A stretch of DNA of 64,000 nucleotides from IMG/VR virus record IMGVR_UViG_3300050821_002228. One strand, 5' to 3'. This document shows positions 8,231-30,454 of the stretch, piece by piece. Numbering within the stretch: the first letter of the stretch is position 1; the number at the start of each line of letters is the position of its first letter. The notes beneath the pieces are model-generated. The model did no database searches and was not told the DNA's origin. It was given only the letters and a program-made list of their open reading frames with translations. The position numbers and the translations under genes are program-made. The stretch comes from a virus.

Positions 8231-9922
8231 ATGGGCGCAGGTTCCGCGCTGGCCCGACTGTTCCGGCCACAACCCATCGCCGAAACCGCACCCGTCGAAG
8301 AGGCGAAAACCCCACCGCCGCAGGCGATCATGCCCGAATACACGGCAGCACAGATCCGCCGCAAAGGCTTCGAATTCGGCGTCCCGCTGACGTCGGAAAT
8401 GCCATCCGCCCAAATGGCGGCGACAGCCGAGCGGCAACAGATGTTGCAGCACCTCCACGACGCCTTCAACACCTGCACGTGGATGAGCGCGGCCATCAAC
8501 GTCATCGCACGCACCGTCACCGCTGGCGGCCTGGAGATCGTGCCAGACGACGACATCCCCGAGGACGAGGTCCCGGAGGAACCGCCGGAGGTGAAACGGC
8601 TGCGGCGGCTGGTGAAGTTCACCAACCCCACCGAGGACATGATCCAACTGCTGCGGATGGTCATCATCGACCTGATGCTGTTCGGTGACTCATACCTGGA
8701 GGTCATCCGGCTGTTCGGGGAACCCGTCGCCCTGTACCTGCTCGATGCCACCACCATGACGGTGATCAGCGATCAGCACGGCGAGGTGACCGGGTACCGG
8801 CAGGACGTGGACGGGCTGCGTCAGGCGTCGTTCAACGTCGAGGACGTCATCCACATCAGCCTCGACGCCCCACGCGGCGGCCTGTACGGCACGTCACCGG
8901 CACAGTTGGCGCTGTTGCCGACCACCGCATGGATCTTCACCATGGCCACGATCCAGGAGACGTTCCGCAGGGGCGACCCGCCCCGTATTCACGTGGATCT
9001 GGCCCACTATGAGGACAACGATGTCCAACGCTGGCGCGAACAGCACCAGGTGTACAACATGGGCCCGAAGGCTGTGGGCAACCCGCTGATCACCACCGGC
9101 GGCGGTGTGATCACCGTGTTGGACAACCGGAAGGTCACGGACTATCTGGACGCTGCCCGGGACCTGCGGGATCAGATCATTGCCTCGTTCGGTGTGCCAC
9201 CGGCGAAGGTCGGGATCATCGAAACCGGCAACATCGGCGGCGGTTCGGGTGAGGCACAGAACAAGTCTTTCCAGGTCAACACCATCATCCCTATTGCCAA
9301 CCTGTTGTTGGAGAAGTTGAACTATCACCTGGTGATGTCCGGGTTCGGGATCACCGGGTGGCATCTGGAGTTCGCCGAGGTTGACTTCCGCGATTCACAA
9401 ACCGTTGAGAATGTGCGGGAGACACGGCTGAAGAACGGCGCCTACTCCGTCAACGACTGGCGGGCGGAGATTGGGAAGCCCCCGATCGATGGTGGTGACA
9501 TCAACATCATCGAGACCCGTCAGGGCATTGTGGCGTGGGACGACATGGAGGCCATGTCGAAGGCGTCTATCGGGAACAAGGCGGCACCGCTGACAGCGGC
9601 AGGTGTCAACGGCTACGTGCCGGGGTTGCCGGACGCCGAGGAACCGGAACCGCCACAGTTGCCGCCTATGGCCGCTGCGATGGCGTTGGCGGGCGGGAAA
9701 CCGGGTGTGGCGCCGGTTCCGGACATGAAACCGAATGCGCCGCGCAGTCCTGAGGATCAGCCGGGTCTGTCGGGTGACGCCACACAGGGCACGCCGCCGA
9801 AGGAAACGGCGTACGGGCGCGATACGCGGGCGTTGAGCGAGTCGTGGGAGCGGTCGTACCGGGCACGGCGGAAAGCGGCGCTGAAGGCGCTGCCGGGGCC
9901 GGGAAGGGGCCATCGTGTGTAG
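8231..9922 (+). CDS. Portal protein (HK97-like family, 563 aa)
   Basis: AGGAGG RBS before ATG 8231. LMLFGDSYLEV, EDVIHI, LYGTSP, IIASFGVPPAKVG and SVNDWRAEIGKPPIDGGD motifs. Follows terL in the virion gene order. Confidence 0.9.
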   Translation: MGAGSALARLFRPQPIAETAPVEEAKTPPPQAIMPEYTAAQIRRKGFEFGVPLTSEMPSAQMAATAERQQMLQHLHDAFNTCTWMSAAINVIARTVTAGGLEIVPDDDIPEDEVPEEPPEVKRLRRLVKFTNPTEDMIQLLRMVIIDLMLFGDSYLEVIRLFGEPVALYLLDATTMTVISDQHGEVTGYRQDVDGLRQASFNVEDVIHISLDAPRGGLYGTSPAQLALLPTTAWIFTMATIQETFRRGDPPRIHVDLAHYEDNDVQRWREQHQVYNMGPKAVGNPLITTGGGVITVLDNRKVTDYLDAARDLRDQIIASFGVPPAKVGIIETGNIGGGSGEAQNKSFQVNTIIPIANLLLEKLNYHLVMSGFGITGWHLEFAEVDFRDSQTVENVRETRLKNGAYSVNDWRAEIGKPPIDGGDINIIETRQGIVAWDDMEAMSKASIGNKAAPLTAAGVNGYVPGLPDAEEPEPPQLPPMAAAMALAGGKPGVAPVPDMKPNAPRSPEDQPGLSGDATQGTPPKETAYGRDTRALSESWERSYRARRKAALKALPGPGRGHRV

Positions 9923-10008
9923 TGGGCACGCGTTGCGGGCGGCGGATGTTCTGCCGCTCATTCCAAAGATCATTGCGTAGCCCTGCGGGGCAGTGAGGAG
10001 ACCCAACC

Positions 10009-10686
10009 ATGGGTCAGGCACAGACGCCGTATGCAGCGGCAACCAATGTCATTACCCCCGGCGTCCTCAACGTGGACAGCGTCAACTCCGGCGTGGCAGC
10101 CAACGTCAACCAGTTTGCCGGGCCGGTGTCGCTGCTGTCGGGCGGTACGAAGGCGTGGATGTACCAGTACCTTGAGCCGACGGGCACGAAGGCGTCGAGC
10201 ATTGACGGCCGTATGTCGGCAACGGGCACGTCCACGGTCGCGACCTCCGGCACCGTCGTGGCGTTCGCGATCCCGATCGAGGCCGGTCTGCTGATCTCCA
10301 ACATGACCCTGGTGTCTATTGCTGCTGAGGCGACGGGCACGCATGCGTGGGTGGGTATCGCCAACAGCGCCGGTACGGTCCTGGGTGTCAGCGCCGACAA
10401 CACCGGTGCGGCGTATTTCGCCGCTAACACCGTCACCACCACGGCTATCGCTACGCCGTTCACCACCACCTACACCGGCTTCTACTACGCCTTTGTGAAC
10501 GTGACGGCAACGACTGTTCCGACGTTCGCTGCTGCCCCGGCGTTGACGCATGCGGCTATCGCCACGGTGGCGCCTATCTACTGTGGTACGGCGTTGACTG
10601 GCCAGACGACGCCGGTTGCGGTGGGTTCGTCGTTGGGCACGATCACCCCGACGACGAACCACCAGATCTACACGTACCTGACGTAA
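10009..10686 (+). CDS. Probable minor virion protein (Thr/Ala-rich beta domain)
   Basis: GAGGAG RBS; visibly paralogous to the C-terminal domain of 13617..15416. Confidence 0.6.
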   Translation: MGQAQTPYAAATNVITPGVLNVDSVNSGVAANVNQFAGPVSLLSGGTKAWMYQYLEPTGTKASSIDGRMSATGTSTVATSGTVVAFAIPIEAGLLISNMTLVSIAAEATGTHAWVGIANSAGTVLGVSADNTGAAYFAANTVTTTAIATPFTTTYTGFYYAFVNVTATTVPTFAAAPALTHAAIATVAPIYCGTALTGQTTPVAVGSSLGTITPTTNHQIYTYLT

Positions 10687-10702
10687 GATCGGGAACGAAA
10701 AC

Positions 10703-10734
10703 GGCCCCTCGTCTGCGGCAACAGGCTAGGGGCC
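10703..10734 (+). promoter_or_regulatory. Leader hairpin or terminator upstream of the endonuclease VII gene
   Basis: GGCCCCT...AGGGGCC stem with a TGCGGCAACA apex, preceded by GAAAA. Confidence 0.5.
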
Positions 10735-10754
10735 AGCCGATCACCGAGGAGACG

Positions 10755-11228
10755 GTGTCCGACATGGCTAAGCCTACGTGTAATACCAAGGGGTGCCGTG
10801 CCCCGGCGTCTGTTGCTGGGTTGTGCTCGTATCACTTTCGTGAACAGTCGTTTGTTGATTCAGTACCGCAGTATCCGGCGTCCGATCCGGAACCGGACTG
10901 CGTTCCCCGGACCATCGCTAAGACAGCCCACGGCAAGTACGGGCTAACGGATGAAGCGTATAGCCGGTTGTGGTCAGAACAACGTGGCACGTGCGGTATC
11001 TGCCGCCGGGAGTTCACTGACGAACGCCGACCATGCATTGATCACAACCACCGTACGGGGCATGTGCGCGGGATCCTTTGCGTGGCGTGCAACACGGGTC
11101 TGGGGCATCTGGGGGATACAACCGCGCGGGTTCGGCGTGCGTACGAGTACCTGCGGGATGCTGACGAACGGAACCGCGTGGCACCCCCGAACCAGGTCAA
11201 GCCCCGCCGGAAGCGCACAAAGCGTTGA
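10755..11228 (+). CDS. Endonuclease VII-family (His-Me finger) endonuclease
   Basis: YGLT..Y..L..EQ.G.CGIC...IDHNH.TG.VRGILC..CN.GLG signature. Confidence 0.9.
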   Translation: MSDMAKPTCNTKGCRAPASVAGLCSYHFREQSFVDSVPQYPASDPEPDCVPRTIAKTAHGKYGLTDEAYSRLWSEQRGTCGICRREFTDERRPCIDHNHRTGHVRGILCVACNTGLGHLGDTTARVRRAYEYLRDADERNRVAPPNQVKPRRKRTKR

Positions 11229-11454
11229 AACGGACATCTTAGACACGCCCACCGGCCGGACAACACGTCCGCGCTACCAATACCGGGTCTGACGTCGCGT
11301 GAACGAGTGGGAGCATGCGCGCCAGCACCTTTTACACGTGGTTCCGGGTCGGTGTAGGCCATTCTCCGGCCCGGAACCACCACCACCCGGCCACAGCCCA
11401 ACGCTGTGACCTGCGACGACTTACACTCCCCCACCGTCCGGGAAGGACGCTGCT

Positions 11455-13257
11455 GTGACTGCCGCAGAGCCATATGTGGTTACCACCGAACGGTTCATCC
11501 CCGGACCGACGTACCTAGACCAGGTCACCGCCAACTCCATCAGCATCGGTGGCGCACCCGTCAACAACACCACCTACACCAACACCGCGCAGGTCGGTCA
11601 GGTCGGGGTAGCGAACACCGCCGCCGGATCCACCTACCAGTCCGTAGTCAACGCCGGGGCGTGGGTGTTCGACGTCCGCACCTTCGGCGCCGTCGGCGAC
11701 GGGCAGTGCGGCACCGATGGGCAGATCACGTCCGGCCACAACGTCCTCACATCCCCGTCCGGCCCGTTCAAACGGTCGGATGTGGGAAAGGCCATCCAGA
11801 TCAAGAACGCGCTGACGTCCGGCGCCACCACCCTCGTCACCACCATCACCGGCTACACGTCGGCAACCACGGTGACGATCGGCGCCAACGCCACCAACAC
11901 CATCGCGTCCGGCGGCCGGTTCCTCTGGGCCACCGACGACACCGCAGCGATTCAGGGATGTATCAACGAGGCGTTCTCGTACGCTCAGCAGTACGGCGTG
12001 GCCGTGATCTGGATCCCGCCTGCTGCCGGGTTGTTCTACGGCATTGCCGGTGCCCTGTCTGCTGGCGGCACGAACCAGGCCAACGGGCAGTTGACTATCC
12101 CGATTAACCCGCGTGTGGCGGGTAAGGCGGTGAACAACAAGGTTGTTTTGTGGTTCCTGGGTGCTACTGACGGCGGTACCACCCGGCATTGGGAACAGTT
12201 GGTTCCGCAGATGGGCGGTTCCACCCTCGTCAGCTTCGGCGTGTTCGCCAATGCCACGGCGCAGACCAACGCTCTCAACGCCAACGGGTCGGCGGCGGTG
12301 ATCAGCGGTCAGACGGGTGCGAACGGTTGGGGCGGGAGCACGTTGCAGTACAACAACGTGCTTGTCAGGTTCCAGAACATGCAGATCTACACCACGCATT
12401 CGGCGAACGGCTGGACGTACAGCGCGCTGAACCTGCATGGTGTGGCGGCTGCCGCTTTGGAGAATTTCGGGTACGGCACCACCGGTGTGTACGCCGATAA
12501 CGATTTCAACAACCCGAACGGGTTCTCCGCCGGGTTGAGTATCGGTGTTCTGCTGCCGTCCGCCGGGAACAACGACAACAATGTGATGAACAATGTGGTT
12601 TGTCACGGCGGCTATACGCGGGGGTTGTTTATGACTGAGCACACTGTCTGGAAGGGCGGTGTGATGCTGTATTGCTGGTCGGGTATCTGCCCGGTCGGTA
12701 ATTATGGCGACGGCGGTAGCGGTGTCGGCGCATCCCACGGTATGGATCTTGAGCAGATCTCGATTGAGGGCTGCAATCAGGACATGGAGATCATCGGTCC
12801 TGGGCAGTCGGGTATTGGTCCGATGCTGTCAGGGTCTTTCGACACTGAGGGTGCGTCGGTGATCCGGGACAACACGTCCGGGATGGTCGCCGCATGTGGC
12901 GTGGTGCATTTGAAGGGCAACGGCGGGACACCGCCGACGCTGGGCGCGGGCACCCCGCTGGATGTGATCTGTGATTTTCAGTTCCCGGGGCTGGCATCCT
13001 CACCGCCTGCCCTGACGATCAACACGGCGATCATGAACCCGTACGGCCGGTACGTGAACGTCACCCTAGCGGGCGGCACCGTCACCTCCATTCAGGTATC
13101 GGCGCTACGCGGCGGACCATCGGCACCGACGATGTCCACCGTCTACTCGCAGGCATCCGGCACGCTGGCGCCGCTGATGGTGCGTGTGGGGCCGCAGGCG
13201 TGGATTCAGATCAACGGCACCGTGACGCCGACGACCGCGACATGGTTTCTGGAGTAG
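11455..13257 (+). CDS. Beta-helix (pectate lyase-3-like) spike or depolymerase 1
   Basis: FDVRTFGAVGDG and TDDTAAIQGCI motifs; G/N/T-rich beta-helix repeats. Confidence 0.75.
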   Translation: MTAAEPYVVTTERFIPGPTYLDQVTANSISIGGAPVNNTTYTNTAQVGQVGVANTAAGSTYQSVVNAGAWVFDVRTFGAVGDGQCGTDGQITSGHNVLTSPSGPFKRSDVGKAIQIKNALTSGATTLVTTITGYTSATTVTIGANATNTIASGGRFLWATDDTAAIQGCINEAFSYAQQYGVAVIWIPPAAGLFYGIAGALSAGGTNQANGQLTIPINPRVAGKAVNNKVVLWFLGATDGGTTRHWEQLVPQMGGSTLVSFGVFANATAQTNALNANGSAAVISGQTGANGWGGSTLQYNNVLVRFQNMQIYTTHSANGWTYSALNLHGVAAAALENFGYGTTGVYADNDFNNPNGFSAGLSIGVLLPSAGNNDNNVMNNVVCHGGYTRGLFMTEHTVWKGGVMLYCWSGICPVGNYGDGGSGVGASHGMDLEQISIEGCNQDMEIIGPGQSGIGPMLSGSFDTEGASVIRDNTSGMVAACGVVHLKGNGGTPPTLGAGTPLDVICDFQFPGLASSPPALTINTAIMNPYGRYVNVTLAGGTVTSIQVSALRGGPSAPTMSTVYSQASGTLAPLMVRVGPQAWIQINGTVTPTTATWFLE

Positions 13258-13267
13258 GGGATGGTTC

Positions 13268-13603
13268 ATGCCGCTGCCGGGTGACCTGAACACGATCACG
13301 GTGACGGGCACGTTTAAGGACGTTCGGGGGAACGTGGCATCGGGTACGGTCACGTTCACCCCGTCCGTGGTGCCGTTGATCGACAACGTGGGGCATGTGG
13401 TCGTGGACGGCCCGACAGTGGCGACACTCAACGGCTCCGGTCAGATCTCAACGGTGTTGGCGTGCACCGACAACGCCAACCTGTCGGCGTTCACCTACAC
13501 CATCTCGCCCACCATCAACGGCGCACAGACGGCGTCGTACCCGGCTAAGTCCGTTCCGCATTCGCTGGGATCAACTGTGGATTTGACGGCCCTGTTGCCG
13601 TAG
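13268..13603 (+). CDS. Stand-alone copy of the spike N-terminal attachment module
   Basis: MPLPGDLNTITVTGT...PHSLGSTVDL aligns end to end with the first ~115 aa of 13617..15416. Confidence 0.7.
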   Translation: MPLPGDLNTITVTGTFKDVRGNVASGTVTFTPSVVPLIDNVGHVVVDGPTVATLNGSGQISTVLACTDNANLSAFTYTISPTINGAQTASYPAKSVPHSLGSTVDLTALLP

Positions 13604-13616
13604 GGAAGGACCGTCT

Positions 13617-15416
13617 ATGCCGCTGCCAGGCGATATCAACACCATCACGGTGACCGGTACATACCTGAACCCGTCGGGTACGGCTATGTCCGGGACGGTC
13701 ACGTTCGCGCCGTCTACCCCGATCCTGGTGGATACTGTCGGCGCGGTTCTGCTGGGCGGTATCGGGACCACGGTGGCGCTGAACGCCTCCGGCGCGTTCT
13801 CCGTGGTTCTGCCGTGTACCGGCCAGTTGACGCCGTCTAACTGGTCGTGGACGGTCACGGAGACCATCGCGGGTATGTCGCCCCGGTCGTACAGCATCAA
13901 CATCCCGCATTCGCTGGGTTCCACTGTTGATATTTCGACCCTGTCACCGATCGTGCCCGCCAGTATCACCGTGTCCTCTCCGGCGTGGCTGAACGTCATG
14001 TCGTACGGCGCTACCGGCAACGGCACCACCGATGACACGGCGGCGATCAAGAACGCTATGGCGGCGGTACCGGCGAACGGCGGCACCGTGTACTTCCCGC
14101 CCGGGTCGTACCTGATCTCCTCGACGCTGACAGTGTCCACGACCGGGACCACGTTCCAGGGTGACGGCTGGGGTTCACAGATCCGGTATGACGGCACAGT
14201 AGTGACCCCGGCTATCAACGCCTCAGCGAACATCCGTGTCAACGCCCGGTGGCTGCGTCTGTCACAGACCAACGCCACCACCACCGGCGTCGCTATCGAC
14301 GCATCCAACTTCAACATGTCGGTGTTGGAGATGCTGCTGATTGACGGCGGCGGCGCGTCGGGTGTGGCACCGAACACCGGTATTCTGATGAACGCCTCCA
14401 CCTGCCACTACAACCAGGTTCGTGCGTGCCGGATCAGCTACGGCGGGGCGTCATCGAAGGGCATCTCGATCACCGGCGGTTCGCATTCCAACAGCATCAT
14501 CGATTGCCGGATGCTGCCGCAGACAGACGACGCCGCATCGTCGGGTGTCTACATCACCAACTCGCATTCCACCAACATTGTTCATGCCGATGTTGAGGCT
14601 GGTTCCGGTAACGGCATCTTCCTCGACACGGCCGCGCATTCGACCACTATCACTGGCGGCTACGCGGACACGATGAACATCGGTTTGAAGATCTCGTCCG
14701 GTGTGATTGCCCCGATGATTGTGGGCGGTACCTGGCAGAACGGGTCCACGGCTAACGTTCAGAACAACGGGGCGGTTGCGCCGGTGTTCCAGAACATGTG
14801 GCCGAACAGCGGCACGACCACGTACAACCATGTGGAGATGCCGAACACCGACCTGTACACGGTCAACGGGGTGCAGGTGCCCGGCAACCACTACTTCGGT
14901 TCGGATCTCGGCCTGATCGCATGGACGTTCGATCCGGCGATAACGTCGGGTTCTGCGTCGGCGGTGTCGGGGACGGTGTTCCTGGCGCAGGTGGTGTTGC
15001 GGTACGCGCAGACGATCAACAAACTGTCGGTGGCTATCGCGACCGGCGCGGCGACGGTGACGGCGAACCAAAACTTCCTCGGCCTGTACACCGCCGCAGG
15101 GACCCGTGTGGCGGTCACGGCGGCTGGGGCTATCGATGCGGCGATTACGTCGGCTGGGAACCTGATGCAGGCTGTGGTGACGCCGTATGCAGCAGCGGCC
15201 GGGACGTATTGGGTGGCGTATCTGAACAACGCGACCACGGCGGCGTTGTTGCAGCGCGGGACCGGCGCTACCCTGTCGGTTTCGAACGTTGGTCTTACCG
15301 GGGCGTCGATGCGGTATGCGGTGAACGGCACTGCCCAAACCACCCTTCCGGCGTCGATTACCCCGGCGTCGAACTCGGCGACCAACGCGTTTCCGATGTG
15401 GGCTGCGGTCGGGTAG
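13617..15416 (+). CDS. Beta-helix (pectate lyase-3-like) spike or depolymerase 2
   Basis: LNVMSYGATGNGTTDDTAAIKNA..GGTVYFPPGSY glycanase-like motif, between N- and C-terminal modules shared with neighbouring genes. Confidence 0.8.
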   Translation: MPLPGDINTITVTGTYLNPSGTAMSGTVTFAPSTPILVDTVGAVLLGGIGTTVALNASGAFSVVLPCTGQLTPSNWSWTVTETIAGMSPRSYSINIPHSLGSTVDISTLSPIVPASITVSSPAWLNVMSYGATGNGTTDDTAAIKNAMAAVPANGGTVYFPPGSYLISSTLTVSTTGTTFQGDGWGSQIRYDGTVVTPAINASANIRVNARWLRLSQTNATTTGVAIDASNFNMSVLEMLLIDGGGASGVAPNTGILMNASTCHYNQVRACRISYGGASSKGISITGGSHSNSIIDCRMLPQTDDAASSGVYITNSHSTNIVHADVEAGSGNGIFLDTAAHSTTITGGYADTMNIGLKISSGVIAPMIVGGTWQNGSTANVQNNGAVAPVFQNMWPNSGTTTYNHVEMPNTDLYTVNGVQVPGNHYFGSDLGLIAWTFDPAITSGSASAVSGTVFLAQVVLRYAQTINKLSVAIATGAATVTANQNFLGLYTAAGTRVAVTAAGAIDAAITSAGNLMQAVVTPYAAAAGTYWVAYLNNATTAALLQRGTGATLSVSNVGLTGASMRYAVNGTAQTTLPASITPASNSATNAFPMWAAVG

Positions 15417-15425
15417 GGGGATGGT

Positions 15426-15716
15426 ATGACGTTGGTGAATGGTCAGCCGCCGGACGGCACGGTGTGGCTGGATGACGGCCACAATCACGGGTATGTGCCG
15501 GTGACGGCGCATGACCGGGATGAGGTGGTGGCGATCAACGAGTTTCACCGGGCTGGGGACGGCTGGTGTTACGGGTTTGTCGCGTTCCGTTCGTACAGTC
15601 CTGAACACGGCTGGGATGTGCTGTCCATGGATCCGTTGACTCTGTCGCCGTCGTTGCTGTGCCGGGCGTGTGGGAACCACGGGTTCATCCGTGACGGGGT
15701 GTGGGTGGCGGCGTAG
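15426..15716 (+). CDS. DUF6527-like protein
   Basis: C-terminal PLTLSPSLLCRACGNHGFIRDGVW matches the recalled family motif. Confidence 0.65.
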   Translation: MTLVNGQPPDGTVWLDDGHNHGYVPVTAHDRDEVVAINEFHRAGDGWCYGFVAFRSYSPEHGWDVLSMDPLTLSPSLLCRACGNHGFIRDGVWVAA

Positions 15717-15734
15717 TGGGTACCGTAGGGCTCT

Positions 15735-15944
15735 ATGGAGTACATGCAGGCACATGAGATCGCGACAATGAACAAGGTTCCGGTGCGGCGTACGTCGTGG
15801 CCGCAGGGGCATCATGCAGTGCATGTTGCGGAGAACCGGTGGCGGTTGCACACGGATCATCCGACGCCGCAGGATTGGGTGCCGTCGGAGGCTGATCAGA
15901 ACGCGAAGGACTGGGAGCAGCACGTTCCGCCGCATCAGGCGTAG
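15735..15944 (+). CDS. DUF2829/Tad2-like small protein (candidate immune-signal sponge)
   Basis: N-terminal A..I....VPVRRTSW and C-terminal WVPSEADQNAKDW match the family pattern R..W...WxPSxxDxxAxDW. Confidence 0.6.
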   Translation: MEYMQAHEIATMNKVPVRRTSWPQGHHAVHVAENRWRLHTDHPTPQDWVPSEADQNAKDWEQHVPPHQA

Positions 15945-15952
15945 GTCAAGGT

Positions 15953-15995
15953 GCGGATACCCGCCGGGCACGCGTCAGTGTCGGCGGGTATCCGC
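15953..15995 (+). terminator. Strong hairpin after the Tad2-like gene
   Basis: GCGGATACCCGCCG/CGGCGGGTATCCGC perfect 14-bp stem. Confidence 0.7.
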
Positions 15996-16049
15996 TAGGC
16001 GCCTGGAGTGGGGTCCTGCGCCTTGTGAGACTGTACCTGGAGGTGTGTG

Positions 16050-16220
16050 GTGTTTGCTGTGATCGCTGCGGTTCTGTTCGGTGTGGCGTTCGTCCTGAAC
16101 GGCGCCGGGTCGCATACCAACGTGTGGTTGTCGCCGATGTCGCTTCTGTTGCTGGGGTTGGCGTCGTTGGCGCTTCACATCGCCGGTGTGGGGTCTGGGG
16201 TACGCATCACTCGCGGCTGA
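16050..16220 (+). CDS. Small two-TM membrane protein (56 aa; not in the ORF track)
   Basis: GGAGG RBS, GTG start; MFAVIAAVLFGVAFVLNG...MSLLLLGLASLALHIAG. Confidence 0.65.
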   Translation: MFAVIAAVLFGVAFVLNGAGSHTNVWLSPMSLLLLGLASLALHIAGVGSGVRITRG

Positions 16221-16261
16221 GTTAGGATCACGCTAGTACTGCCCGTGATGGGCGGTTTCCT

Positions 16262-16621
16262 GTGATGGGAGCTGGCGTGATGCCGAAGGAACAGATCAAC
16301 TTTCCGCAGTGGCGGAAGCATGGGCATGGGCTGCCGGGGACGTCCGGTTCTGATGAGGACGCGACGGCTGAGATCGACGACGTGTTGGTTGTGCGGTGGC
16401 ACGACAACTCGTTGGTCGGGGGTTATGTGCAGATGGCGTTGGTGTCGCAGGAGCCGATGCCGTGGGCGGATTTTGAGGCGGCGGGTGTGGATGTGCATCC
16501 GGGTCCGGTGATGAACACGGAAACGGAACGGTTCATGCCGGTGTTGTCGCGGTCTGACATCAACCGTCTGATCAAGGTGTTGCGGCGGGCGCGGGACAGC
16601 GCATATGGACGTGACGAATAG
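16262..16621 (+). CDS. Hypothetical protein
   Basis: 119-aa ORF ending LSRSDINRLIKVLRRARDSAYGRDE, directly before the tRNA array. Confidence 0.6.
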   Translation: MMGAGVMPKEQINFPQWRKHGHGLPGTSGSDEDATAEIDDVLVVRWHDNSLVGGYVQMALVSQEPMPWADFEAAGVDVHPGPVMNTETERFMPVLSRSDINRLIKVLRRARDSAYGRDE

Positions 16622-16723
16622 CACCGTACAGGGTTAGCATTGCGGTACCGGAAAGGACAGGGTTCGATCCCCTGCCGGGCGCCTCGGCTCCTGGTGGTGT
16701 ACGGGATGCACGTTCCGGAGAAT

Positions 16724-16797
16724 GGGTCCGTAGCTCCAATTGGAAGAGCGGCTGTTTTGCAAACAGCAGGTTGTGGGTTCGAGTCCCACCGGTTCCA
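16724..16797 (+). tRNA. tRNA-Ala(TGC)
   Basis: Full cloverleaf; GCTGT-TTTGCAA-ACAGC; G3:U70 alanine identity pair; U4:U69 mismatch; no CCA. Confidence 0.9.
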
Positions 16798-16856
16798 CTG
16801 CCTGATAGGCGGTGTCTGGTACTTCACGGGCACATGCACCGTCTAGAGGGCAGCCA

Positions 16857-16930
16857 CGGCGTGTGGCCTAGTTGGTAAGGCACCTGATTTGGGATCAGGA
16901 GATGCGCAGGTTCGAGTCCTGCTACGCCGA
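16857..16930 (+). tRNA. tRNA-Pro(TGG)
   Basis: CGGCGTG/TACGCCG acceptor; CCTGA-TTTGGGA-TCAGG; canonical T-arm; A73. Confidence 0.95.
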
Positions 16931-16934
16931 CGTT

Positions 16935-17019
16935 GGAGAGGTGGCAGAGCGGTAATGCGACGCGTTGCTAGCGCGATGCCCGGGGCAACCCGGCCGGGGT
17001 TCGATCCCTCGTCTCTCCG
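16935..17019 (+). tRNA. tRNA-Ser(GCT)
   Basis: GGAGAGG/TCTCTCC acceptor, G73, loop TTGCTAG, long variable arm. Confidence 0.9.
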
Positions 17020-17070
17020 CGTCCCCGCTGTGTGATCTTTTCTAGTCCTGGGAAACCCGCAGTGGGGCAT

Positions 17071-17151
17071 GGTAGGTACGCCAATGGTGGCAAACGCTCT
17101 CGAAAGGCGTGGCGGGTAACACCGTAGCGGGTTCGATTCCTGCACCTACCG
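17071..17151 (+). tRNA. tRNA-Ser(CGA), atypical D-arm
   Basis: GGTAGGT/ACCTACC acceptor, G73, ACGCT-CTCGAAA-GGCGT, long variable arm; A8-C9 and a 6-nt D-loop. Confidence 0.85.
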
Positions 17152-17163
17152 CTCGGTGTCGTT

Positions 17164-17246
17164 GGTAGGTCCGGCATTGGTGCGCTAAGCGGTCTTGAAA
17201 GCCGTGGCGTCTGACGGCGTTGGGGGTTCGAATCCCTCACCTACCG
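17164..17246 (+). tRNA. tRNA-Ser(TGA), atypical D-arm
   Basis: GGTAGGT/ACCTACC acceptor, G73, GCGGT-CTTGAAA-GCCGT, long variable arm; C8-C9. Confidence 0.85.
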
Positions 17247-17250
17247 CGAT

Positions 17251-17336
17251 GGAAGGTCCGACATTTGGCGTGTCAAGCGCGTTGGAAGCGCGTGCCGGTT
17301 TAACACCCGGGGTCGGTTCGAATCCGGCACCTTCCG
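17251..17336 (+). tRNA. tRNA-Ser(GGA), atypical D-arm
   Basis: GGAAGGT/ACCTTCC acceptor, G73, GCGCG-TTGGAAG-CGCGT, long variable arm; C8-C9. Confidence 0.85.
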
Positions 17337-17338
17337 CC

Positions 17339-17743
17339 CTACGGCAACCAGTCAAGCCCTACGTAGAACCGGATGGCGTTCATATCCCGCTTATCCAACC
17401 CAACATGCGGATCGGTACCTACGAACAGGGCACGGCGGCCGGTCGCATGGACCCGGTCGGCTAGGTCCGGCATCGCCTGCCCGTGGAACATGTCGTCCAC
17501 CCACACCAGCGGCCGTGGCGCGCCGTACAGCGGCACCTGGTCCTTACTGACCACCGGCAGATCCGGCAGCCCCAGATCTGGGGACAGTTCAGTGTTGGCC
17601 TGGTAGCCCCATGACGTGGCCCATACGAGTTCGCAGGTGTCAGACAGTTCCCGTAGCCACACGCCGTGTTCCGGGTTGAGTTCGAAATCTCCCCGGAACG
17701 GCAACAGGACACCGTCCACGTCTAACGCAATGACTGGTTTCAC
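17339..17743 (-). CDS. HAD phosphatase of the Swiss-Army-Knife RNA-repair-like type
   Basis: IALDVDGVL motif I, VWATSW, LGLPDLPVV and RPLVWVDD motif IV. Confidence 0.75.
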   Translation of the reverse strand: MKPVIALDVDGVLLPFRGDFELNPEHGVWLRELSDTCELVWATSWGYQANTELSPDLGLPDLPVVSKDQVPLYGAPRPLVWVDDMFHGQAMPDLADRVHATGRRALFVGTDPHVGLDKRDMNAIRFYVGLDWLP

Positions 17744-17779
17744 AGTTCCTCCGTCAATGGCCGCCGTGGGCTGCCCCTG

Positions 17780-17977
17780 CTAGAGGCGGTAGCCGGGTGA
17801 GGTGGTGCGTGCGGCGTTTTCGAACGTGTCCAGCCGCCGCCGCAGTTCCCGGCATTCCTGGTACAGCCGGTGGAGTTCCCGTACAAGCGCCCGCATCGCC
17901 TCAACCGACATGTACATGCCCGGCTGCGCATTCTCCAACGCCGCCAGCAACGCCGGGAATTCGTCTTGGTTATCCAT
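17780..17977 (-). CDS. Small coiled-coil hypothetical protein
   Basis: 65-aa ORF upstream of the HAD gene; shares a divergent intergenic region with 18002. Confidence 0.45.
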   Translation of the reverse strand: MDNQDEFPALLAALENAQPGMYMSVEAMRALVRELHRLYQECRELRRRLDTFENAARTTSPGYRL

Positions 17978-18001
17978 GCCCTAATCGTAGGAGGTTGGTT
18001 C

Positions 18002-19489
18002 ATGGCTGATCAGCCAGACGTCAAAGACGGCGTGATGATTGCCCTGTATCCGTCGGCCACCGACACGGCCCGCTATGTCCTGATCGATGGGACACCGGCG
18101 GACGAGATGCACGTGACGATGGTGTACCTGGGGCACACGGACGAGGTCGATGCGGACGCGGTGAAACGTGCCGTCGGCGCGTTGGCGCCGCGTCCGGCGT
18201 TCACCGCCAACGTGTCCGGTCATGCCCGGTTCACCGGTGATGAACAGGACGTGATCGTTGCGTTGATCGACGCCCCGGAGATTGAGCAGCTACGGCGGGA
18301 CCTGATCGACGTGCTAGCCATCGAGGACATCGGCAACGCCTCCGACCACGGGTACACGCCGCATATGACGTTGATGTACGTCAACCCCGACGATCCGGCG
18401 CCGTTCCGGCGGCTGGACACCGACCCCATCGGGTTCGACACCGTGTGGGTGGTGTATGGGGAGGAGCGGACGGCGTTTCCGCTGTCAGACGACACTGCCG
18501 AATCCATCCGCCCGTACGCCCGCACCGCCTACGCGCAGGGCTGGGCCGCATCGGGCGGCCCGATGACTGATGAGGTCCGGGCGGGGTGTATCGCGGTCAT
18601 GGACCTGTGTGTGGAACACGCCCACGAACCGGATGTCCTGGAGGTCGCGCTTCACCTGGGGCATTTGGAGGGTGTGTGGGCGCAGGTGTTCGCACGCCGG
18701 GAGGCCCTGTACAGGGCGCATATTCATGCGGTGTTGAAGGCGTGGCGGGCTGCGTTGGACGGCGTGGACGTCGCCGGGGCCGTCCAGATCTTCCGCCAAC
18801 AGGTCGGCCTGTCTGAGGCGGTGGACCGGGAGGCGCTGCGTCGCATGAAGGAGGCGGCTAGAAACGCCGCTGTGCGCCTGTTGCAGTGGGTCCCGGGTAA
18901 GGCGGCGTGGCAGGGGCTGCGGGACGCTATGCGGGCTGTGGTGACGTCTGGGCGGGCTGAGGGGTATGCGTCGGCGTTGGCGGTTGCGGCGTCGAAACAG
19001 CAGATGATCGGCTTCGACTTCGACATTGCGTTCCAACACGCCTATGACGCCATGGAGAACCTGGGTGATGCGTGGGCGGCGGCTGATCCGTGGTTGGAGC
19101 GGATGGTGGGGCGGGCGGCGGACGAGTTCGGCCGGACACTAGGGGATCTCGCATCACAGGGCGCCGACTATGAACAGATGGTCGCGGCCGGGCTGGACGT
19201 GTTGCAGGACACCACGGCGGACAGGGACATTGTCGGGTTCATTGTGGACTGGGCGGCGTCTACCGGCATGTCTAGGGGCGCGTTGGACCTGTATGCGTCT
19301 GAGGGTGTGCAGCAGGTGTCTTGGCTGACCGCCGGTGACGGCCGTGTGTGTCCTGTGTGTGAGACCAACGGGCAGGAATCGCCGTTCCTGATCACCGACT
19401 TCCCGACGATGCCCGCGCATCCGCTGTGCCGGTGTGTGGCGTCAGCGGAGTTCACTCTTTCCCCCGACTACGGGGGTTTCTTCACGTAG
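18002..19489 (+). CDS. MuF/SPP1 gp7-like minor head protein with an N-terminal 2H phosphoesterase domain (495 aa)
   Basis: AGGAGG RBS. HVTMVYLG and PHMTL 2H motifs in the first ~160 aa. C-terminal WLTAGDGRVCPVC...HPLCRC MuF signature. Confidence 0.85.
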   Translation: MADQPDVKDGVMIALYPSATDTARYVLIDGTPADEMHVTMVYLGHTDEVDADAVKRAVGALAPRPAFTANVSGHARFTGDEQDVIVALIDAPEIEQLRRDLIDVLAIEDIGNASDHGYTPHMTLMYVNPDDPAPFRRLDTDPIGFDTVWVVYGEERTAFPLSDDTAESIRPYARTAYAQGWAASGGPMTDEVRAGCIAVMDLCVEHAHEPDVLEVALHLGHLEGVWAQVFARREALYRAHIHAVLKAWRAALDGVDVAGAVQIFRQQVGLSEAVDREALRRMKEAARNAAVRLLQWVPGKAAWQGLRDAMRAVVTSGRAEGYASALAVAASKQQMIGFDFDIAFQHAYDAMENLGDAWAAADPWLERMVGRAADEFGRTLGDLASQGADYEQMVAAGLDVLQDTTADRDIVGFIVDWAASTGMSRGALDLYASEGVQQVSWLTAGDGRVCPVCETNGQESPFLITDFPTMPAHPLCRCVASAEFTLSPDYGGFFT

Positions 19490-19498
19490 GAGCGGTTT

Positions 19499-19819
19499 AT
19501 GCCTGCCCCATTGTTCACGCCGTCCACGGACGGCGACACCACGGCCGTGGTTGCGTCCGGCACCACCGGCAACACGTTGATCAAGACGGGTCCTGGCACG
19601 TTAGGCCGTGTCCTGGTGACGTCCGCGAACGGCGCGGCAGCGATCAACATCTATGACGCGAACAGCCCGGCGTCCGGCGCGGCCACCGGAACGATCATCG
19701 GGGTGGTTCCGGCGTCGGCGACTGTCGGCAGCGTTTACACGCTGGGGATGCCGTTTGAGGCCGGGTGTTTGGTTGTTGGTGCCGCCACCAACGGCGCGTT
19801 GACTATCAGTTTCCATTAG
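19499..19819 (+). CDS. Small probable virion protein
   Basis: Thr/Gly/Ala-rich beta protein with AGGAG RBS inside the head operon. Confidence 0.55.
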   Translation: MPAPLFTPSTDGDTTAVVASGTTGNTLIKTGPGTLGRVLVTSANGAAAINIYDANSPASGAATGTIIGVVPASATVGSVYTLGMPFEAGCLVVGAATNGALTISFH

Positions 19820-19828
19820 GAGTCCACA

Positions 19829-21904
19829 GTGGGTGCTCTCGCCACTATCAGCGGCGTGGCGTTGGTGCCGGGGCTTTCCCGCAACAACCGCCTGTACACG
19901 CCGGAGATCATCGGTAAGGCCGCTAAGCGGATGCAGGAACGGCTGTCCGACCCGAACGGGCTGCCGATTGTGATGCGGACCCATCATGAGGCCGGGGACG
20001 ATTCGGCGCGGATCGTGGGCCGGGTGACGTCGGTGAAGGTCGATAACGATTCGGCGTTGCGGTATGACGCGGAACTGTTCGACACCAGCCACGGCCGCAC
20101 TATCGCGTCGTTGGTGAAACCAGGCGGTAAGCAGGCACCGGCGCTGCGGTCGGTGTCGATCCACGGGTACTGGATGGGGGATCCGCGCAGCGTCACGTAT
20201 CAGGGGGAGCATGCGACGACTGCCGACGATTTGGAGATTGACGCGATCGATTTCACGGCGTCGCCGGGGGTTGATCGGGCGTTGATCGACGCCGGTGGTA
20301 AGGCGCGGGAGTCGGTAGACGGTTTGCGGCGGGTACCGATCAGCGAATCCATGGAAGCCACTATCACCGTGGTTGAGGAAGGTTCGGGTTGGGCTGATAT
20401 CGGCCACACGGTGAAGGAAGGTGGTGTTTCTATGGCGTCGGAAAAGGAATTGCCGGACCGCTGGTGGATTTATGAGGCGAAGTATTCCGCCGACGATATG
20501 AAGTCGCTGTTGGCTAAGGGCCATGCGATGAAGAACGCGTCGGGGGAACCGTCGTACCCTATTGCGGATGTCTCGGACCTGAAGAAGGCTATTCGGGCGG
20601 TTGGCCGGGGTAAGGCTAGCCACGACGCGGTCCGTAAGCACATCATGAAGCGTGCAAAAGCTCTTGGTCAGGCAGCGTTGATCCCCGACAACTGGAATGC
20701 GGATGGTTCGATGAAAGAACATGAGGTCCGCATGGGCGACATCACCGAATACTTCGGTGGCGACGGCGGAGAGGCGTCGGGGTTCTGCCTGGACGCGTAC
20801 AGCGGCCCCCTGTCGGTGTCTATCCGGGGTTGTGTGTCGCCGGACCAGTTGCGGGCGGCGGCGCAGGCAGCGGCTAAGGCGGCTATGGACGCTATCAACG
20901 TGATGGACCCGGACAACGACGCCGACATTGATGTGATGGGCGAGGCGGGTGGGTCCAGCGCTGATGACGACATGACGGACGTGTATGGGGAGTCGTTTGC
21001 TACGGGCGGCCGGGTGCGGGGTCCGAGGGACGACCGGAACACCATCACGATCAATGTGAAGCCGGTGATGAACGAGGAGTCGTTCGATTTGATCCGGAAG
21101 CAGATGGAGCAGTTGACGGCCCGGTTTGGGATCCCGGCGCCTGCGGAGACGGCGGCGGCCGGTGATGCGGTTGCGGAGATGACGTTGCCGCCCGACGACC
21201 ACGGCCACACCCACGACGGGGCCGACCCGCACACCCATTCCCACACGCACATTCACGAGTCGGAGGGTGACGGGCCGCAGTACAGCCACGGTCACACCCA
21301 CACGCATGTGCATTCCAGTGGTGACGGCCCGGCGCATGAGCATGGCCACAACCACATCCACGTGACTTCTCCGGCGGCGACGGCGGAGACGGTTGAACAG
21401 GTTGACAACACTTTGGAGGAGTCCGCTGTGAGCGAGACCGAGAACACGACGGCCGCTGAGGCGGCTCCCACGAACCGCGCGTTCAGCGCCGAGGACATGA
21501 AGCTCCTCGGGGAGACCATCGGGGGTGTGATGGCTGAGGCCATCCGCGCTCTTGGTGAGACGCGGGAACCGAAGCACGCTGCTACCACGCAGGAGACGGC
21601 CGAGCCGGTTGTCCCTGTCCAGGCTGCCGAGAACGCCGCTAAGGCTGGCGTTGAGGAGAAGGCGCCGGTGGACATGGACACGTTGAAGGAGTCTTTGGCA
21701 CGGGAGCTGCGGAAGGAACTGCGCGACGAGTTGCGTGGCGAGTTCCTGAAGGAGAACGGGCTGCCGCCGCGTCGGGGCTACCGCCTGTCGGAAAACGACG
21801 AGGAGACGGTGGAGCTGACGGACGCGGAGCTGTTCGACAAGCACCGCGTTGACATGCTGCTGGGGATGTACGCGAAGGCCCCGGCGCCGGGCACGGCAGC
21901 CTAA
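19829..21904 (+). CDS. Capsid maturation protease/scaffold fusion with a His-rich insert
   Basis: SRNNRLY, THH, SVSIHG and IDFTASPGV protease motifs; PIADVSDLKKAI...IPDNW domain; acidic coiled-coil C-terminus; directly before the capsid gene. Confidence 0.8.
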   Translation: MGALATISGVALVPGLSRNNRLYTPEIIGKAAKRMQERLSDPNGLPIVMRTHHEAGDDSARIVGRVTSVKVDNDSALRYDAELFDTSHGRTIASLVKPGGKQAPALRSVSIHGYWMGDPRSVTYQGEHATTADDLEIDAIDFTASPGVDRALIDAGGKARESVDGLRRVPISESMEATITVVEEGSGWADIGHTVKEGGVSMASEKELPDRWWIYEAKYSADDMKSLLAKGHAMKNASGEPSYPIADVSDLKKAIRAVGRGKASHDAVRKHIMKRAKALGQAALIPDNWNADGSMKEHEVRMGDITEYFGGDGGEASGFCLDAYSGPLSVSIRGCVSPDQLRAAAQAAAKAAMDAINVMDPDNDADIDVMGEAGGSSADDDMTDVYGESFATGGRVRGPRDDRNTITINVKPVMNEESFDLIRKQMEQLTARFGIPAPAETAAAGDAVAEMTLPPDDHGHTHDGADPHTHSHTHIHESEGDGPQYSHGHTHTHVHSSGDGPAHEHGHNHIHVTSPAATAETVEQVDNTLEESAVSETENTTAAEAAPTNRAFSAEDMKLLGETIGGVMAEAIRALGETREPKHAATTQETAEPVVPVQAAENAAKAGVEEKAPVDMDTLKESLARELRKELRDELRGEFLKENGLPPRRGYRLSENDEETVELTDAELFDKHRVDMLLGMYAKAPAPGTAA

Positions 21905-21938: not shown

Positions 21939-23324
21939 ATGTCGAGCATGACCCTGTTGGAAGAGGCGGTGACGACCGCTGGTACGGTCACGCCCCTCAT
22001 CCCGAAGGCGATTGACCCCGTCCTTCTCGAATACCAGCGCCGGTACTCGCCGATGCTGGCAGCGATTCCCACGAAGCAGTGGAATTCCACGCAGTACTTC
22101 TTCAACCGTCGTGTGAACCGGCCGGACTCCGGTGCGGTTATCGACGGTGGCGCCCGGCCGATCAGCAACTCCACGTACGAGCAGTCGGTGTACAACATCC
22201 GTCTGTTCCAGGCGGTTGGTTCGGTCACCGGCTTCGCGCAGACCGTTACCCGCGACATTGTGGGTGACCTGCGGCAGTTGGAGTTGGACGGGACTGTCCA
22301 GTCCATGCTGTGGACTGTGGAGAACTCGTTCATCTGGGGCAACGACCCGGCGACGACCAACGGTGTGCAGCCGATGTGCTCCGGGCTGGACTACCTGGTG
22401 TCGAACTACACCGCCGGTACCGGCTCGAACGCGTTCGTGAACGCGCAGGACGTCAACGGCAGCATCACGCTGGCGAAGTTGGACGAGCTGATTGACCTGG
22501 TGGAGTCGAACGCGGCTATGCCGATCGACGGTTCGCCGTGGATGTTCCTGATGTCCGGGCGCATGGTGTCGGCTGTGTCGCAGTTGTTCGTGAACCAGCA
22601 GCGTTTCATGGCGCCGACCACGAACCTCGGCGGCGGTCTGAACGTGCCGTCGTACCGTGGTGTTCCGATGGTGAAGTCTTCGTTCCTGTCGCCGCGTTCG
22701 TTCCAGATGGGCGCTGTGACCACGGGGACGGCGACCACTGGCGGCACGCTGGCGGCGACGACGTACTACTACCAGGTGTCGGCGGTTGTGGCGCGGTTTG
22801 GTGAGATCGCCGCCTCGACGGAGGTTTCGCAGACCACGACGGGTTCCACGAGCACGGTGACGTTGTCGTTCGCTACCCCGACGGGGTTGCCGGACAACGC
22901 GGCGCCGATCCTGTACAAGGTGTACCGCTCGACCGCTACCACCACGGAGACGCTGGTGGGTGTGGTGGACGCGTTCGACACCACGGGTGTTGCGGTGACG
23001 TCGATCACGGACACCGGGACCAACCTGCTGACGAACTCGGCGGGCAACACGGGCCCGGCGGCGTATGTCGGTACGAACGCGGGTGCTAAGCCGCGTCCGG
23101 TTCCGGCGGCGAACACGTTCAACGCGTACGAGGACATCTACCTGTTGTCGATGGACCCGAACTTCCTGGTTCGTCCGTACACCCGCAACATGCAGATCCT
23201 GCCGTTGGCGCCGACGGTGACGGCGCCGGACACGCTGCCGTTCGCTGTTCTGACGGACACGACGTTGGCGTTGCGTGCGCCGAAGTACGCGGGCCGTTTG
23301 TCTCGGGTGGTTGCGAACATCTGA
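21939..23324 (+). CDS. Major capsid protein (HK97 fold) with an inserted Ig/Fn3-like domain
   Basis: Follows the protease; GSVTGFAQ, ENSFIWG and LAKLDELID capsid-like segments; followed by a strong terminator. Confidence 0.8.
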   Translation: MSSMTLLEEAVTTAGTVTPLIPKAIDPVLLEYQRRYSPMLAAIPTKQWNSTQYFFNRRVNRPDSGAVIDGGARPISNSTYEQSVYNIRLFQAVGSVTGFAQTVTRDIVGDLRQLELDGTVQSMLWTVENSFIWGNDPATTNGVQPMCSGLDYLVSNYTAGTGSNAFVNAQDVNGSITLAKLDELIDLVESNAAMPIDGSPWMFLMSGRMVSAVSQLFVNQQRFMAPTTNLGGGLNVPSYRGVPMVKSSFLSPRSFQMGAVTTGTATTGGTLAATTYYYQVSAVVARFGEIAASTEVSQTTTGSTSTVTLSFATPTGLPDNAAPILYKVYRSTATTTETLVGVVDAFDTTGVAVTSITDTGTNLLTNSAGNTGPAAYVGTNAGAKPRPVPAANTFNAYEDIYLLSMDPNFLVRPYTRNMQILPLAPTVTAPDTLPFAVLTDTTLALRAPKYAGRLSRVVANI

Positions 23325-28804: not shown

Positions 28805-29019
28805 TAGTCGTCTGCCCCTCCGTGGTCGTCTTCCAAATGCCAGTTCCACAGCATGTGCCAGGCGTCACGGCGCCGCTTGAACACCTTCCGCCACCCGCAC
28901 TCACACCCGGCGATCCAGCGGTGACGACGCAGACACCAGCCGTTGCCGCACTCCTGCTTCAGGTCGGACAGGTGAACGCGGGTGACGTCGATGAACGGCC
29001 GGGGCTTAAAAGTCGCCAT
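28804..29019 (-). CDS. Small Cys-rich protein
   Basis: CGNGWC and CECGW motifs. Confidence 0.45.
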   Translation of the reverse strand: MATFKPRPFIDVTRVHLSDLKQECGNGWCLRRHRWIAGCECGWRKVFKRRRDAWHMLWNWHLEDDHGGADD

Positions 29020-29926: not shown

Positions 29927-29941
29927 GGTTTCCTCCGTTGT

Positions 29942-30451
29942 CTAGACCTTCTGCGGAATAACGGGATCGGGTGACGGTTCCCGCAGCCCCCGGCCGTCGT
30001 CGCCGTTGCACCAGGGGCACCACGGTTCCAACAGGTTGTGGACGCGCAGGGCCCACAGGAAGAACAGGAGCCCGGGTTGGAACACGGCCCACGCGATGGC
30101 GTAGGGCCACACACGCGGCAGCAGGTTCGGGACCGTCAACATCGCGACCAGGTAGACGAGCGCCCATGGGCTGATGCACCTGTGGAAGAACTTCAGCGTC
30201 CGGCTCTTACGCCGGGCTGCCCCCACGCCGTCGGCGGGTGTGGCGGCGGCGCAGTATTCGCAGAACCGCTTGCCGTGGTACAGGTTCAGGCACACCAGCG
30301 CGATCAGCGGCAGCACCGTGACCGTGTTGACGAGGCGTCCCCACCAGTTGTCAGGCAGCAGGATGGTGGGGGCGGTGAGGATGACGGCGGCGATGAGGAG
30401 CGGACCGGCGCGGTGGGTCCACTTTTCCACGTCGATATCTGGGGCGTTCAC
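29942..30451 (-). CDS. Four-TM membrane protein with CxxC motifs
   Basis: Hydrophobic helices; FCEYC and WCPWC. Confidence 0.6.
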   Translation of the reverse strand: MNAPDIDVEKWTHRAGPLLIAAVILTAPTILLPDNWWGRLVNTVTVLPLIALVCLNLYHGKRFCEYCAAATPADGVGAARRKSRTLKFFHRCISPWALVYLVAMLTVPNLLPRVWPYAIAWAVFQPGLLFFLWALRVHNLLEPWCPWCNGDDGRGLREPSPDPVIPQKV

Positions 30452-30454
30452 GGG

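Follow-up and report, generated by a model that had tools for sequence, protein, structure and literature searches.

The window analysed here, a stretch of 64,000 nucleotides from the IMG/VR virus record IMGVR_UViG_3300050821_002228 and part of a ~104-kb contig of an uncultured soil actinophage (G+C 62–68%), encodes the 495-residue protein P0001 (18002–19489, plus strand), in which a 2H phosphoesterase domain is fused to the N-terminus of a MuF-type minor head protein. With modest confidence, P0001 is read as a two-part head protein, consisting of a MuF core and a 2H domain that would be injected as counter-defence cargo, preferably directed against immune nucleotide signals.

Residues 1–165 (18002–18496) constitute a ThpR/LigT-like 2H phosphoesterase domain, as indicated by PF13563, TIGR02258 and fold matches, and residues 166–495 (18497–19486) form a core resembling the MuF/SPP1 gp7 minor head proteins, as indicated by TIGR01641, PHROG and BFVD matches. 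The first catalytic motif, H37-V-T39 (18110–18118), aligns with the HxT motif of PH0099, while the second, H121-M-T123 (18362–18370), is embedded in the segment H116-G-Y-T-P-H121-M-T123 (18347–18370), which places a third invariant histidine in front of it. The C-terminal region of the MuF core contains the Cys/His cluster C450-P-V-C453...H473-P-L-C476-R-C478 (19349–19435); all these features are encoded on the plus strand. A preliminary description of this DNA had reported two intact HxT motifs (HVT and HMT) in an N-terminal domain of ~160 residues and its fusion to a MuF C-terminus with CPVC...HPLCRC. Both motifs were found, at nt 18110 and 18362, and the domain architecture was confirmed by profiles and relatives. 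The ATG at 18002 was taken as the start codon because it follows, at a distance of 7 nt, the ribosome-binding site AGGAGG (17989–17994, plus strand, read from the sequence), and because the P0001 homologues have the same MADQPDYS N-terminus. A GTG at 17870, which would extend the protein to 539 residues, was rejected on these grounds.

The assignment of the N-terminal domain is supported by profile searches and by structural comparison. PF13563 (2_5_RNA_ligase2) matches P0001 with an E-value of 4.3e-15 and a score of 56.5 bits (cut-off 27), and is found in 37 of 37 family members. The NCBIfam profile TIGR02258 (RNA 2',3'-cyclic phosphodiesterase) matches with an E-value of 7e-10 and 39.1 bits, which is below its equivalog cut-off of 65.7 bits; 36 of the 37 relatives match this profile too, likewise below the cut-off. 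An AlphaFold (AF2) model of P0001, built on 37 homologues, has a predicted local distance difference test score (pLDDT) of 89.6 and carries the HxT motifs on strands E38–45 and E121–127. Comparison of this model with solved 2H enzymes gave Z scores of 15–17 over 147–158 residues, at 16–21% sequence identity to the ThpR/LigT-type structures. The VIA Z scores were 17.3 for the cyclic phosphodiesterase (CPDase) of D. radiodurans (5h7e), 17.2 for T. thermophilus TT0787 (1iuh), 16.0 for PH0099 (1vdx) and 15.6 for E. coli LigT (5ldm), and lower matches were obtained with human Usb1 (14.3), rotavirus VP3 (13.6), the BCSR5 phage phosphodiesterase (12.2) and Acb1 of FBB1 (11.4). The top Foldseek matches of the model also belong to the ThpR/LigT/CPDase group. 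H37, H116 and H121 are kept in all 54 fused relatives, as is a threonine or serine at position 123, while T39 is kept in 53, and both HxT motifs align with the catalytic motifs of solved 2H enzymes such as PH0099. Residues 1–165 are a genuine 2H superfamily domain. Judging from the model, the two motifs sit on central strands and would face a shared cleft, and the conservation of the motif residues suggests that the domain is apparently catalytically competent.

The preliminary description had gone further and proposed an Acb1-type nuclease directed against CBASS (cyclic oligonucleotide-based antiphage signalling system). The Acb1 profile of Pfam (PF23474) matches P0001 with an E-value of 7.6e-4 and 19.7 bits and thus misses its gathering cut-off of 27, although 20 of the 37 family members match at E ≤ 0.01 (best 2.9e-6). 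In the BFVD search the first Acb1 appeared only at rank 39, and the fold comparison places Acb1 well behind the cyclic phosphodiesterases (Z 11.4 versus up to 17.3), a gap that is partly due to the smaller size of Acb1. P0001 cannot be filed as a member of the Acb1 family, and in sequence and fold its 2H domain is nearer to the ThpR/LigT cyclic phosphodiesterases. The 'Acb1/anti-CBASS' label is therefore not supported, given the sub-threshold PF23474 match, the better TIGR02258 score and the closer ThpR/LigT fold; what stands of this claim is an N-terminal 2H domain on a head protein. The alternative that the same description had offered, the processing of 2',3'-cyclic RNA ends, fits the data no less well (TIGR02258 E 7e-10; Z 15.6–17.3). 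The ThpR/LigT-like rather than Acb1-like character of the domain guides the choice of candidate substrates.

The C-terminal two-thirds of P0001 are more divergent from known profiles. PF04233 (E 0.16, 13.1 bits, cut-off 29.6) and TIGR01641 (E 0.0035, 17.7 bits, cut-off 39.65) both miss P0001 itself, but at E ≤ 0.01 TIGR01641 matches 29 of the 37 relatives (best 1.2e-9) and PF04233 matches 9 of them (best 6.6e-6). PHROG minor-head and head-morphogenesis families match residues 413–484, and BFVD models annotated as 'minor capsid protein' and 'head morphogenesis' align over ~270–340 columns with E-values of 1e-5 to 1e-4 and a high root-mean-square deviation. C450, C453, H473, C476 and C478 are shared without exception by 37 sequences, and the PF04233 and TIGR01641 matches fall in the same region. 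The MuF assignment is thus weak for P0001 alone but holds at the family level, where the core is a divergent MuF/SPP1-gp7 member of ~330 residues. When the core was folded alone (pLDDT 71.9) and compared with 48,161 solved chains, the best Z score was 6.7, to helical bundles, which corresponds to noise, and no MuF-like structure was among the matches. A complex prediction for the portal protein and the MuF core gave a median score of 0.29, with the mark at 0.32.

The boundary between the two parts is defined by relatives of ~330 residues that lack the 2H domain. These MuF-only proteins begin 5–6 residues before the near-invariant segment PYARTAYAQGWAxSGGPMT, which therefore marks the start of the MuF core, and the 2H domain is cleanly appended in front of it. 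Within this segment, AYAQGWAxSGGPMT had been considered as an inter-domain linker or protease site; both options were rejected, as the MuF-only homologues contain it right after their N-terminus. The first helices of the core, residues 166–205 (18497–18616), have a pLDDT of ~90 in the full-length model and below 50 in the core folded alone. The alignment for the core-alone run was shallower, and the drop could stem from this difference in depth or from a genuine need of these helices for the 2H domain.

P0001 is encoded within the head gene cluster, as had been stated in the preliminary description. The terminase (4668–6332) and the portal protein (8231–9922, plus strand; PHROG 12 E 8.5e-45, PF04860) lie upstream, and the 2H-MuF gene is the first in a head operon that continues with a 106-residue protein (19499–19819, plus strand), a 691-residue protein (19829–21904, plus strand) and a major capsid protein of the SU10_MCP type (21939–23324, plus strand; PHROG 752 E 1.9e-28, PF17236). 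The 106-residue protein is kept after MuF in relatives, and the 691-residue protein, located between MuF and the capsid gene, is syntenic in almost all of them; neither has a Pfam or PHROG match, and by its position alone the latter may be a scaffold or a protease. The 691-residue protein also contains a striking His-rich tract of HxH repeats, e.g. HGHTHDGADPHTHSHTHIH. Comparison of 80 IMG/VR loci and four further contigs showed that the module portal-MuF(±2H)-g106-g691-major capsid protein is conserved.

Since the 2H domain is fused to a MuF-type head protein in a late head operon, loading into the virion is the natural inference. SPP1 gp7 is the established precedent for a MuF protein inside the capsid, and by analogy a few copies of the P0001 core would be incorporated at the portal and leave with the DNA. 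The N-terminal 165 residues would then be carried as an active, metal-independent ThpR/LigT-type 2H phosphoesterase, so that a late-made, capsid-tethered enzyme would be present in the new host cell before any phage gene is expressed. The virion-delivered enzyme of the preliminary description is in line with the fusion, its head-operon context and the same inference in print, and it is only the specific Acb1/anti-CBASS label that is not supported.

An improbable alternative is that the 2H domain is not delivered at all, but acts late in the producer cell or in the procapsid, or is cleaved off, the fusion serving co-expression only. It would be in keeping with the modular structure of P0001, in which the 2H domain is a separate N-terminal unit and the MuF core is self-sufficient. 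This alternative does not fit the distribution of the domain: five 2H-bearing genomes contain exactly one PF13563 match each, which is the MuF fusion, and five complete MuF-only genomes contain no PF13563 match anywhere. In the phage group of P0001, the 2H domain thus occurs only fused to MuF and never as a free gene. It is also at odds with other actinophages, in which the same type of 2H domain recurs in or beside three different proteins (portal, MuF or protease), all capsid-internal, a pattern that co-expression would not explain. With the 2H domain alone as the query, tblastn retrieved 32 phage records at ~23–35% identity, and in three of three records inspected the domain was located inside or beside annotated head-assembly genes: directly after the portal in Gordonia DalanDe (gp19), inside a 1187-residue MuF-containing protein in Streptomyces Geonosis (gene 11), and, in Microbacterium ValentiniPuff, at the N-terminus of gp7, which is annotated as 'capsid maturation protease'. 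Likewise, the top structural matches in BFVD are actinophage head-module proteins, with E-values down to 1.8e-12, and the matches also include a 'putative structural protein' of Gordonia GMA2 and a 'capsid morphogenesis protein' of OneinaGillian.

The family is widespread and its 2H domain is frequently gained or lost. The ~495-residue architecture is represented by well over 100 clusters at 90% identity, from metagenomes and from Streptomyces and Streptacidiphilus genomes, usually under the annotation '2'-5' RNA ligase family protein'. Some of the relatives are proviruses (G003, G004), and prophage members occur in Streptomyces mirabilis and Streptacidiphilus griseoplanus. Among 82 scored relatives, 30 are MuF-only. 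A maximum-likelihood tree was computed from the MuF core (quick IQ-TREE, 83 rows); it requires 15 gains or losses of the 2H domain, at least 13 of which are forced by well-supported branches, and one sister pair, the MuF-only locus L008 and the 2H-bearing locus L077, is joined with 98% support. In the closest relatives, identity is 40–51% for the 2H domain, 59–68% for the MuF core and 88–91% for the capsid protein. The 2H domains of relatives matched by tblastn are ~39–51% identical to the copy in the window, and their catalytic residues are nonetheless invariant. According to these observations, the 2H domain is an accessory cargo that is dispensable and turns over rapidly, yet is under catalytic constraint. 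The combination of conserved catalytic residues with frequent gain and loss is therefore the signature of a host-interaction accessory and is expected for counter-defence; the 2H module would be an optional, often exchanged counter-defence function.

As preferred substrates, immune nucleotide signals are proposed, i.e. cyclic oligonucleotides or species with 2'-5' linkages or 2',3'-cyclic phosphates. The evidence leans slightly towards such signals, with RNA 2',3'-cyclic ends nearly as likely. One observation comes from the region upstream of P0001, which encodes a DUF6527/BubE-like protein (96 residues, E 0.0016) and a Tad2-like protein (69 residues, PF11195 E 1.1e-4) as a gene pair at 15426–15944 (plus strand). 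The pair, which may act as a sponge that takes up Thoeris or cyclic-dinucleotide signals, is kept in the portal-MuF island of L077, L087 and L088, while L005 matched only the Tad2-like gene. The location of the Tad2-like gene in this island and its retention in relatives suggest pressure from nucleotide-signalling immunity. The second observation concerns RNA-repair enzymes, which the 2H-MuF fusion does not seem to need. The Rnl1 encoded in the window, used as the query, found no counterpart in five related genomes, an absence that is only suggestive, as this query gave no positive match anywhere. The Pnkp of the window, used in the same way, detected a Pnkp-like phosphatase domain only in G006, a MuF-only phage and the closest complete relative, where it resides in a 379-residue open reading frame (L085); the 2H-bearing genomes G001–G003 contain neither enzyme by these searches. 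Because the fusion occurs in genomes without Rnl1, and in G001–G003 also without Pnkp, its activity appears to be self-sufficient, hence the lean towards immune signals.

The phage itself is nevertheless well equipped for RNA repair. Pnkp (AAA_33 and HAD_PNKP domains; 29006–29926, PF25109 E 1.6e-49), RlaP (30455–31444, E 1e-16) and an Rnl1-type RNA ligase within a 543-residue protein (31150–32781, PF09511 E 6.6e-16) are encoded on the minus strand, together with a 169-residue protein without a Pfam match in the same set (29006–32781), and a Thg1-like domain is present in a 481-residue open reading frame (52697–54142, minus strand, E 9.5e-24). The divergent neighbour of the 2H-MuF gene, 260 nt upstream, encodes a 134-residue HAD_SAK_2 phosphatase-like protein (17339–17743, minus strand; PF18143 E 7.1e-7, 30.1 bits, cut-off 27.5), which may act together with the 2H domain. 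Upstream of both genes lies a tRNA array (16724–17339, plus strand) with tRNA-Ala(TGC), tRNA-Pro(TGG) and four tRNA-Ser (GCT, CGA, TGA, GGA), and similar Ser-rich arrays occupy the same place in L004, L006, L008, L077 and L086–L088.

This gene content is the basis of a possible, although less probable, explanation, in which the 2H domain serves RNA end healing by opening 2',3'-cyclic ends left by metal-independent defence RNases of the host, while HAD_SAK, Pnkp, RlaP, Rnl1 and the Thg1-like protein finish the repair, and pre-loading into the capsid provides a head start. The best sequence and fold matches of the domain, the RNA 2',3'-cyclic phosphodiesterases, argue for such a role, as do the presence in this phage of Pnkp, RlaP, Rnl1, Thg1 and six tRNAs directly upstream. 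The neighbouring HAD_SAK_2 gene comes and goes with the 2H domain in the L077/L008 pair: between its tRNA array and its MuF core, L077 carries both and L008 neither. The 2H-SAK profile (PF22547) matches 7 of the 37 family members, with P0001 itself reaching only an E-value of 0.057. However, among the other loci checked by tblastn, HAD_SAK adjoins the MuF gene only in L077; the nearest 2H-bearing relatives L086, L087 and L088 have no HAD_SAK beside the gene, and the MuF-only locus L082 has a homologue ~7 kb upstream of MuF. T4-type Pnkp heals 2',3'-cyclic ends, which would make a 2H enzyme redundant for this step. Furthermore, RNA cannot be resealed by a handful of packaged copies in the absence of a ligase, the 2H-bearing genomes G001–G003 lack both Rnl1 and Pnkp, and Iyer et al. 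2017 reported that MuF-type 2H domains were not linked to RNA ligases (PMC5512222).

A more specific and rather doubtful version of RNA end healing assigns the MuF-borne 2H domain to a tRNA-rescue kit, of which HAD_SAK, Pnkp, RlaP, Rnl1, the Thg1-like 3'-5' polymerase and the full tRNA-Ser set would be the other members. The 2H domain would be its pre-loaded first step, undoing anticodon-nuclease damage before phage expression. If true, capsid-borne RNA repair would be seen here for the first time.

A further proposal, and the least probable of those considered, is that the 2H domain is an injected offensive RNase, similar to Usb1 and leaving 2',3'-cyclic ends, which attacks RNAs of the host or of competitors, e.g. 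CRISPR RNAs, in parallel to the nuclease toxins that other phages carry on MuF. An RNase role was favoured by Iyer et al. 2017 by analogy with PBECR RNase-MuF fusions (PMC5512222), and human Usb1 does align with the 2H domain at a Z score of 14.3. This value is below those of the ThpR/LigT group, and no immunity gene or other hallmark of a toxin system adjoins the gene. In addition, MuF toxin cargos are C-terminal (PMC9503650), whereas the 2H domain of P0001 is N-terminal.

Several points weigh against counter-defence directed at immune nucleotide signals, the reading favoured here. In sequence and fold, the 2H domain resembles RNA 2',3'-cyclic phosphodiesterases more than it does Acb1, and within this superfamily the fold does not predict the substrate. 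The RNA-repair kit and HAD_SAK_2 next to the 2H domain point to RNA ends, and the PF11195 score of the Tad2-like protein, 23 bits, is just under the cut-off of 25. A literature search, moreover, returned no study that directly demonstrates any 2H-MuF protein in virions, its ejection or its activity.

The position of the gene differs in one respect from that of its relatives. In most of the 80 related loci, the portal gene is directly upstream of MuF, whereas here the two are split by an 8-kb variable island (9923–18001), the content of which varies among the closest relatives. In addition to the DUF6527/BubE-like and Tad2-like genes and the six tRNAs, it contains two minus-strand genes, one of which is the HAD_SAK_2 gene, and two genes for pectate-lyase-like fibre or spike proteins (11455–13257 and 13617–15416), i.e. 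tail-type genes inside the head module. Elsewhere in the window, two proteins with von Willebrand factor A domains (VWA_2; 53494–54120, E 5.8e-6, and 62383–63738, E 5.5e-5, both minus strand) are encoded among the minus-strand non-structural genes. A megablast search of 50,697 phage records with the 2H-MuF gene gave no match, and the capsid protein matches only the Leptospira phages LE3 and LE4 among these cultured-phage records, at 25% identity. The phage therefore belongs to a ~100-kb actinophage lineage without a cultured representative.

If the 2H-MuF protein is packaged and ejected, it would provide counter-defence at time zero, independently of phage transcription. The idea was published as early as 2017, and no bench test of it was found in the literature searched. 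The 2H-MuF family is a convenient test bed, as it combines one enzyme and one MuF core with many natural MuF-only controls, and the related 2H head proteins of cultured Gordonia, Arthrobacter, Microbacterium and Streptomyces phages ease proteomics and plating experiments.

Compared with known enzymes, P0001 shares most with the ThpR/LigT RNA cyclic phosphodiesterases, which are its best sequence and fold matches and align at both HxT motifs. These are free cellular enzymes, however, while P0001 is fused to a capsid protein and, at 39.1 bits, stays below the 65.7-bit cut-off of the corresponding profile. Acb1 of T4 and FBB1 (PDB 7t26/7t27; PF23474) is likewise phage-encoded and shares the 2H fold and the pair of HxT motifs, and like Acb1, the P0001 domain could act alone as a counter-defence enzyme; the Acb1 profile of Pfam is weakly matched by 20 of the 37 family members. 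The P0001 domain differs in being larger, of ThpR size, and in its lower structural similarity to Acb1 (Z 11.4) than to the cyclic phosphodiesterases (Z 17.3). Acb1 is moreover a free early protein and not a virion fusion. 'Swiss Army Knife' RNA-repair proteins join HAD and 2H modules (PF18143 HAD_SAK_2 and PF22547 2H-SAK); in the window, HAD_SAK_2 adjoins the 2H domain, but the two are encoded by separate genes on opposite strands.

Among virion proteins, T4 Alt is likewise an enzyme tethered to a capsid-internal protein. A similar arrangement is found in the MuF-VIP2 ADP-ribosyltransferase fusions of the Microbacterium phages Percival, Goodman and Johann, in which an enzyme is placed on a capsid-internal protein and the cargo varies between close relatives, being present in Percival and absent from Floof (PMC7302621). 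The chemistry of the enzyme is different, and the cargo is located C-terminally on MuF instead of N-terminally as in P0001.

The closest precedent is the class of head-packaged 'polyvalent' effectors described by Iyer, Burroughs, Anand, de Souza and Aravind in 2017, who reported 2H domains fused to MuF or portal proteins and proposed that they are injected as RNases or as enzymes degrading defence nucleotides (PMC5512222). Packaged 2H-MuF and 2H-portal fusions, injected against SMODS, cyclic-mononucleotide and CRISPR signalling, were proposed again by Iyer et al. 2022 (PMC9503650). P0001 belongs to this class, with 2H and MuF in one polypeptide encoded among late virion genes, and it shares with the 2017 effectors the domain pair, the late head-gene context and the inference drawn from them; it differs from these giant multi-domain proteins in being a simple N-terminal 2H domain on a ~330-residue MuF core. 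The 2H-MuF design and its predicted injected anti-defence role are thus already published (PMC5512222, PMC9503650). The additions made here are the ThpR-like character of the 2H domain, the lability of this cargo, with at least 13 changes, and the finding that in this phage group it occurs only fused to MuF. A further addition is the pairing, in one genome, of a MuF-borne 2H domain with a full RNA-repair kit: Iyer et al. 2017 saw no association of 2H with RNA ligases (PMC5512222), whereas this phage also encodes Rnl1, Pnkp, RlaP and HAD_SAK.

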